A stretch of 64,000 nucleotides of DNA from an uncultured delta proteobacterium (GTDB taxonomy: Bacteria > Desulfobacterota > Binatia > Binatales > Binataceae), in assembly GCA_963747845.1 (NCBI GenBank), contig CAVVGR010000005.1:3508-67507 (forward strand). Reading direction: 5' to 3'. Shown one piece after another: positions 952-1,150 of this stretch. Under the pieces are notes generated by a model, which ran no database searches, was not told the DNA's origin, and saw only the letters and a program-made list of their open reading frames with translations. Within the stretch, counting starts at the first letter, position 1, and the number at the start of each line of letters is the position of its first letter. A program made the translations under genes and the position numbers.

Positions 952-968
952 AAACCGCCAAATTGTTC

Positions 969-996
969 TTGCAACATGCACGCACATAAGTACAAT
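969..996 (+). promoter_or_regulatory. sigma70-like promoter
   Basis: TTGCAA-N16-TACAAT in an AT-rich intergenic region; predicted start near 1003. Confidence 0.55.
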
Positions 997-1002
997 ACGC
1001 TT

Positions 1003-1075
1003 GCTGGCCGGGGTTTGCCCCCCTTTTCCCGGTTGGCTACGGGCCGGGCGGAGCAATCTGCCTGGCCCTTATCAT
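1003..1075 (+). ncRNA. Candidate small RNA with two hairpins
   Basis: Hairpin 1 (1003-1037) has a C-rich loop; hairpin 2 (1041-1068) has a GCAA tetraloop and a U-rich tail; G-U pairs work only on the + strand; promoter directly upstream; no + strand gene until 1799. Confidence 0.5.
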
Positions 1076-1150
1076 TTGCAGCTTGGCGTTATCAGTCGAT
1101 GCCTTAGGCTTCGCTAACACACATCGTCAGTCCGAAATTAACCTGAGTTT

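Follow-up and report, generated by a model that had tools for sequence, protein, structure and literature searches.

A previously undescribed small RNA gene with an invariant C-rich loop in the Binataceae, identified by genome comparison

Genome comparison indicates that an intergenic element of the Binataceae is a real, previously undescribed small RNA (sRNA) gene with its own promoter and terminator, from which transcription is predicted. We consider it probable that this is a stand-alone gene for a non-coding RNA of ~75 nt whose loop base-pairs in trans with G-rich RNAs, an Hfq-type chaperone not being needed. Binatota are abundant bacteria of soil and sediment, and we know of no member in culture. 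A literature search found no paper linking Binatota or Binatia with small or regulatory RNAs.

The assembly (G000) comprised 3.43 Mb in 17 contigs and was 86% complete. The window, that is the whole 64-kb stretch of DNA that was analysed (positions 1-64000), contains the sRNA element within an intergenic gap of 301 nt. The features of the locus, in window coordinates, are as follows.

3-590, + strand: 3' end of a CoxL-like molybdopterin dehydrogenase gene (Pfam MoCoBD_2), upstream of the sRNA
644-907, + strand: ThiS-family gene, upstream of the sRNA
969-1078, + strand: sRNA gene, from promoter to tail
969-974, + strand: -35 hexamer TTGCAA, from the sequence and a promoter scan
991-996, + strand: -10 hexamer TACAAT, separated from the -35 hexamer by a 16-nt spacer, from the promoter scan
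~1002-1004, + strand: predicted transcription start, from the position of the promoter
1003-1037, + strand: hairpin 1, with an 11-bp stem (1003-1013 with 1027-1037), from the fold
1014-1026, + strand: apical loop of hairpin 1, UUUGCCCCCCUUU, 13 nt, the proposed seed
1041-1068, + strand: hairpin 2, with a GC-rich stem of 12 bp (1041-1052 with 1057-1068)
1053-1056, + strand: GCAA tetraloop of hairpin 2
1069-1078, + strand: U-rich tail UUAUCAUUUG, predicted 3' end
1209-1676, - strand: universal stress protein (USP) gene, downstream of the sRNA
1799-2854, + strand: zinc alcohol dehydrogenase (ADH) gene, after the USP gene

The initial annotation had described a promoter TTGCAA-N16-TACAAT, two hairpins with a C-rich and a GCAA loop, and a U-rich tail; all of these were found at the positions listed, the promoter scan picked out the same hexamers, and the next gene, for the universal stress protein, does lie on the opposite strand. 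Hairpin 2 with its U-tract was terminator-like in a consensus terminator scan. Promoter-like sites in the sRNA region numbered 2 against 0.7 expected, a match that is not significant on the sequence alone, and the feature is placed beyond chance by the comparative evidence, not by this single-sequence match. Farther upstream, within positions 590-650, the stop codon of the CoxL-like gene is followed by a strong hairpin that resembles a terminator (603-633). The ATG of the ThiS-like gene (644) lies only 5 to 15 nt past this hairpin and has no Shine-Dalgarno sequence, and this arrangement of hairpin and ThiS-like start behind the CoxL-like gene is kept in many genera.

The + strand was predicted to fold into exactly the two hairpins with -43.8 kcal/mol (z = -3.1 versus shuffles), while the - strand reached -31.6 kcal/mol (z = -0.34 versus shuffles). 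The six G-U pairs reported earlier as valid on the + strand only are present as well, four in hairpin 1 and two in hairpin 2, in agreement with the fold energies. The folding model thus clearly assigns the sRNA to the + strand. Covariation, which had been named as a way of checking the structure among homologues, was found in both helices. It was evaluated in alignment A2, which consists of 54 sequences (orthologues from ~25 genera and sibling copies from the genus Binatus; no unpublished genomes). Standard pairs occupied 98.2% of the cells of A2, an alignment fitted to the covariance model and hence biased toward the structure, and 17 of the 23 base pairs showed changes on both sides. Such changes affected 6 of the 11 pairs of hairpin 1, in which 98.1% of the cells were paired, and 11 of the 12 pairs of hairpin 2. 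None of 500 shuffles matched the observed values for pairing and covariation, and sliding the partners by 1 to 3 columns lowered pairing to 31-58%. An independent MAFFT/RNAalifold run on alignment A1, which holds 20 same-genus sequences, returned identical helices.

The loop of hairpin 1 is essentially invariant in A2, whereas the stems vary. Its core, UUGCCC(C)CCCUU, occurred in all 42 orthologues, some with the seventh C, and in nearly all Binatus siblings. Each loop position had an unpaired probability of at least 0.7 in the ensemble prediction. An invariant, accessible C6 loop on a covarying scaffold has the classic look of a seed region, as far as the structural model goes. The loop of hairpin 2 is a GNRA tetraloop in most orthologues (GCAA, GCGA or GAAA), and the tail in other genera is a plainer U-run. 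As the sRNA contains no AUG, and orthologues differ by insertions or deletions of 1 nt within the C-run of the loop, it is not coding. A pseudoknot between the loop of the Binatus siblings and a GGGGGG ahead of them was considered and rejected for its geometry, as there is no linker beside the 11-bp stem; this GGGGGG falls on the predicted start site.

A DNA search recovered this block from every one of 24 same-genus genomes, with ~90% identity. The BLAST boundaries corresponded to window 962-1079, a block that spans the -35 hexamer through the complete U-tail, and the flanks could not be aligned; DNA conservation within the genus ends at ~1079. Covariance model R1, built on A1, was matched over its full length by 137 of the 151 Binataceae genomes, with 27 of the 30 genera represented, and most genomes had a single strong match. 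A broader model, R2, was run over 150 genomes of the class and found the RNA in 16 of the 17 Binataceae genomes in this set. Matches in the 18 other families of the class reached only ~30 bits and covered the terminator hairpin alone, lacking the loop motif. Because these families gave only terminator-like noise, the sRNA is, within the genomes searched, regarded as restricted to the Binataceae. The tallies of the same-genus, family, class, Hfq and MreB searches include seven unpublished genomes (G019, G024, G057, G082, G084, G099 and G111). One row of A1 and R1 came from an unpublished genome (G024; L016), as did one MreB row (G099; L175), while A2 and R2 contained none, and no conclusion rests on unpublished genomes.

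For the promoter, 42 orthologous loci were anchored at the first base of the stem. The pattern TTGCR-N16-TAnAAT with a spacer of exactly 16 nt was present in 37 of these loci and TTGCR in 39, and the -10 hexamer ended 6 to 8 nt ahead of the first stem base. Information content was maximal at both hexamers and near zero over most of the spacer and farther upstream. Such a pattern is typical of a working sigma-70-type promoter, with a predicted start at the foot of hairpin 1. The earlier proposal of an independent gene gained support in the same way, since ~25 genera share the two hexamers, the fixed spacer length and the distance from promoter to stem, but differ in the spacer sequence and in both flanks.

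The sRNA had been assigned to no recognised family, and the Rfam comparison upheld this. Two outcomes that had been set out as refuting the sRNA, a lack of structural conservation in relatives and a match to a known terminator or repeat family, did not arise. Within the window (1-64000) no Rfam family scored at or above its gathering score. A scan of 700-1500 against Rfam 15 with permissive filters and E ≤ 10 returned only SorX (RF02784; 14.6 bits against a gathering score of 46.6, E = 1.5) and SorY (RF02651; 14.2 bits against 111, E = 4.3). These RNAs of Rhodobacter have a comparable layout, in which a short C/U-rich linker joins a 5' hairpin to a terminator hairpin, but membership was rejected, as both scores are far below the gathering scores and derive mostly from the terminator.

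The closest parallel is 6C of the Actinobacteria (B11). The C-rich loops of 6C in M. tuberculosis bind G-rich sites, e.g. the panD ribosome-binding site AGGGGGG, without a chaperone, pairing directly with G-rich stretches of 5' UTRs or ribosome-binding sites (Mai et al. 2019, PMC6486639). Like 6C, the sRNA is short and highly structured, comes from a high-GC lineage where Hfq is absent or was not found, exposes a run of six C's in a hairpin loop and closes with a terminator. It differs in phylum (Binatota) and in the fixed U3-G...U3 flanks of its loop. Membership was rejected, as a limit of E ≤ 10 still returned nothing for the 6C model; 6C requires at least two stem-loops each with at least six C's, whereas here only hairpin 1 carries a C6 loop. 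Targets of the 6C type were not evident in this genome: a search for panD was negative, and the leader of dnaB contains no G-run.

In RsaE/RoxS of Firmicutes and RepG of Helicobacter, too, unpaired motifs rich in C or in C and U pair with G-rich ribosome-binding sites or G-repeats. These RNAs share with the present one a conserved seed on a simple hairpin scaffold; architecture and taxa differ, and there was no Rfam match. RsaE has two C-rich motifs. RepG pairs through the loop of its terminator; in the present sRNA that loop is a GNRA tetraloop, and the seed would lie on the 5' hairpin. Judged by these analogies, the sRNA is a new family of a known kind, which would work like 6C, RsaE or RepG and is a member of none of them.

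Hfq (PF17209) was found in none of 81 Binataceae genomes, 73 of which were at least 90% complete, while control genomes were positive; searches of this genome for ProQ and CsrA were negative. Together, the invariant C6 loop, the failure to find Hfq and the parallel to 6C favour a chaperone-independent pairing with G-rich single strands; G-rich RNA is the probable partner of the loop, and Hfq would be dispensable, as it is for 6C. Transcription would be started at ~1003, at the foot of hairpin 1, by the sigma-70-type promoter and would be ended at ~1075-1078 by hairpin 2 and the U-rich tail. The partners of the loop would be single-stranded GGGGG or GGGGGG runs flanked by A/U in a limited number of RNAs, typically at or near unusual G-run ribosome-binding sites, and pairing would block translation of these targets or alter their stability. 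The G-C-rich nature of the pairing would make an Hfq-type chaperone unnecessary, and lineage-specific siblings carry an identical or similar loop behind different promoters.

Targets were sought in a crude gene set of our own with 2,763 starts, in the region from -30 to +6. The initial annotation had suggested that the loop is aimed at Shine-Dalgarno regions, and as a general statement this did not hold: complementarity of at least 8 nt to the loop was found at the starts of 12 genes versus 24 ± 10 for composition-matched permuted loops, so that such sites are depleted if anything and a general anti-Shine-Dalgarno RNA is not indicated. The usual Shine-Dalgarno sites of this genome are GGAGG-like and cannot pair with the C-run, which together with the lack of enrichment limits any regulon to a small set of G-run sites. 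The best candidate sites at ribosome-binding positions, listed below, come from this target scan, which showed no overall enrichment.

C9:209331: lipoprotein gene, GAAAAGGGGG
C3:207316: gene of a secreted protein, AAAAGGGGGG
C17:102958: excisionase-like gene, GGGGGGCAAA
M20 peptidase gene
MreB gene

In a comparison of 30 genomes, most genera retained the G-rich AAGGGGC as ribosome-binding site of MreB, which ordinary Shine-Dalgarno function explains equally well. The neighbouring genes were rejected as targets, as the start regions of the ThiS-like, USP and ADH genes have no complementarity conserved across genera. No G-run was found in the start regions of the cox operon of this genome.

Some unusual sequences of this genome were recorded in addition. 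A tract of ~300 nt consisting almost only of G and A, with many runs of G6 to G12, lies on the - strand inside a contig of 454 kb (C3:287270-287575 = L114:270-575); from its sequence it may be either genuine and prone to G-quadruplex formation or a poly-G artefact of the assembly. At C16:47155-47220 an A-run is directly followed by a long G-run, which is most likely a sequencing or assembly artefact. Two short repeated motifs were found upstream of unrelated genes (C1:101851, C12:264054, C1:199829; C17:62470, C3:240226, C7:406663). The first is a hairpin, CTCCCAYTTGGGAG, followed by GAGGGAATCAGAAAGGGGGG, and the second is GGGGAAGGGGTTAGGGGTTAGG.

In some genomes extra copies of the sRNA were found at unrelated loci. 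The two genomes examined for this, G170 and G044, the latter from another genus, gave 17 and 9 matches, respectively. Binatus siblings have a different promoter in common, which is strongly conserved and reads roughly TAGACGC-TCGCGCGGCAAT-TTGGTA, and in G170 their loops are still C-rich and starting to drift (CCUCCC, CCCCAC). A group of siblings in G044 has yet another promoter and an unchanged loop. The sibling promoters, TAGACGCTCGCGCGGCAATTTGGTA in the Binatus type and TTGATTATAGGAAGGGG...TCTAAT in the G044 type, were more conserved than the RNAs behind them (L179-L203; G170, G044), which suggests dedicated regulators. This genome contains one intact copy of the sRNA and one degenerate sibling.

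C9:10167-10252 (= L107:268-353), - strand: degenerate sibling, 35 bits

The promoter of this sibling is of the Binatus sibling type (TAGATGC...GATTTGATAG), its loop has changed to UUUGCCUCACUUU (UUUGCCUCAC...), and its stem 1 contains mismatches. Paralogous sRNAs with a common seed under the same or different promoters are known from Qrr1-4, OmrA/B and the streptococcal csRNAs. G170 and G044 resemble these families, from which this genome differs in having only the ancestral copy and one degenerate sibling. As read from the sequences, the arrangement is one ancestral syntenic gene with lineage-specific sibling sRNAs, and not a promoter-less dispersed repeat.

The strict conservation of the loop also permits a different function, in which the U3-G-C6-U3 loop is recognised by a protein, e.g. 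one with a KH, cold-shock or S1 domain, and the RNA titrates or guides that protein. The whole 13-nt loop, with its flanking U's and its single G, is preserved in ~25 genera and many siblings, which is stricter than pairing to diverse targets demands; complementary sites are not enriched at start regions, and the multi-copy siblings recall protein-sponge RNAs. Known sponges, however, carry several motifs and this RNA only one, and no candidate protein emerged, Hfq, ProQ and CsrA not having been found. Strong conservation is typical of seeds as well, which tend to be the best-preserved part of a base-pairing sRNA, and the G170 sibling loops drift as evolving seeds do. Protein binding is therefore unlikely to be the function, although it is the alternative that survives best.

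Pairing in trans by a stand-alone RNA was further weighed against a role in cis, in which the hairpins would be the 3' UTR or terminator of the CoxL-like/ThiS-like unit, or an RNA processed from that 3' UTR, and the promoter would be incidental. Of the 42 orthologue loci of A2, 38 have the element on the same strand as a CoxL-like gene and within ~90-300 nt downstream of it, usually with a ThiS-like gene in between, and this constant position would suit a cis element. Between the ThiS-like stop codon (907) and the sRNA promoter there is no convincing terminator, so that read-through transcripts would end at hairpin 2. On the downstream side the loci vary, with a convergent USP gene, an ADH gene or insertions. 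A cis element does not account for hexamers, a 16-nt spacer and a stem distance that are kept across genera when the surroundings are not, nor for siblings with the same loop at unrelated loci, each with its own promoter, and a terminator needs no invariant 13-nt loop on a separate upstream hairpin. In addition, three genera (g24, g45 and g46) retain CoxL orthologues with no sRNA adjoining them, even with filters off; the only match among these, a weak one (18.5 bits), was a hairpin between CoxL and ThiS and not at the sRNA position. We regard a cis role as improbable.

The longest complement to the loop in the genome is the 12-nt sequence AAAAGGGGGGCA (C9:187608-187619), where by our own estimate about three 12-mer matches per genome are expected by chance. 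The gene of a small protein, P0001, has a 3' UTR that ends in a covarying terminator hairpin, and the complement is situated at the tip of this hairpin.

L126:1235-1645 (= C9:187233-187643): unit found in Binatus only
L126:1312-1482: P0001 gene, encoding a 56-aa protein with a C-terminal hydrophobic segment

Owing to this segment P0001 is read as a putative tail-anchored membrane protein, and from its sequence context it may be a stress-induced small membrane protein. The gene was found in only about half of the Binatus genomes, and in no other genus searched. A perfect palindrome, TTGAACAAATTGTTCAA, precedes it in a promoter-like region, and a conserved structured 3' UTR of 160 nt follows it, in which the tip of the terminator hairpin is AAAGGGGGGC(A). 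Ten Binatus genomes showed no variation in the motif AAGGGGGGC, and the RNA is assigned to that strand by G-U pairs. In an RNAalifold prediction UCCC pairs with part of the G-run inside the same 3' UTR hairpin. The C-loop might be one half of a dedicated RNA-RNA pair, which in Binatus would dock on AAAGGGGGGC(A) at the P0001 terminator tip, and the sRNA would then be a type I antitoxin-like or a terminator-targeting regulator. P0001 would in that case be a candidate stress-induced membrane peptide behind the operator TTGAACAAATTGTTCAA, and the sibling sRNAs would diversify its control. We hold such a dedicated pair to be very improbable, slightly more so than a role in cis, and take the 12-nt complement as a weak target lead only.

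That the element is a REP-like dispersed repeat, as the many copies in some genomes (17 matches in G170) could suggest, or a set of chance hairpins without a function of their own, can practically be dismissed, as most genomes have one strong match in a syntenic position, the copies each have their own promoter and a terminator with a U-tail, the covariation is strong, and this genome has only one intact and one degenerate copy.

With a promoter, a supported structure and a working covariance model, the sRNA is usable for Rfam-type resources and for annotating hundreds of metagenome-assembled genomes. It would leave the general view of how sRNAs work unchanged. If the loop pairs as proposed, the family would be a second, independent instance of the solution realised in 6C, namely a C6 loop in a high-GC lineage in which Hfq was not found, and this recurrence would support the view that a chaperone can be dispensed with when seed pairing is rich in G-C. 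The conserved strong promoter on a tiny RNA should moreover make it suitable as a marker of Binataceae activity in metatranscriptomes.
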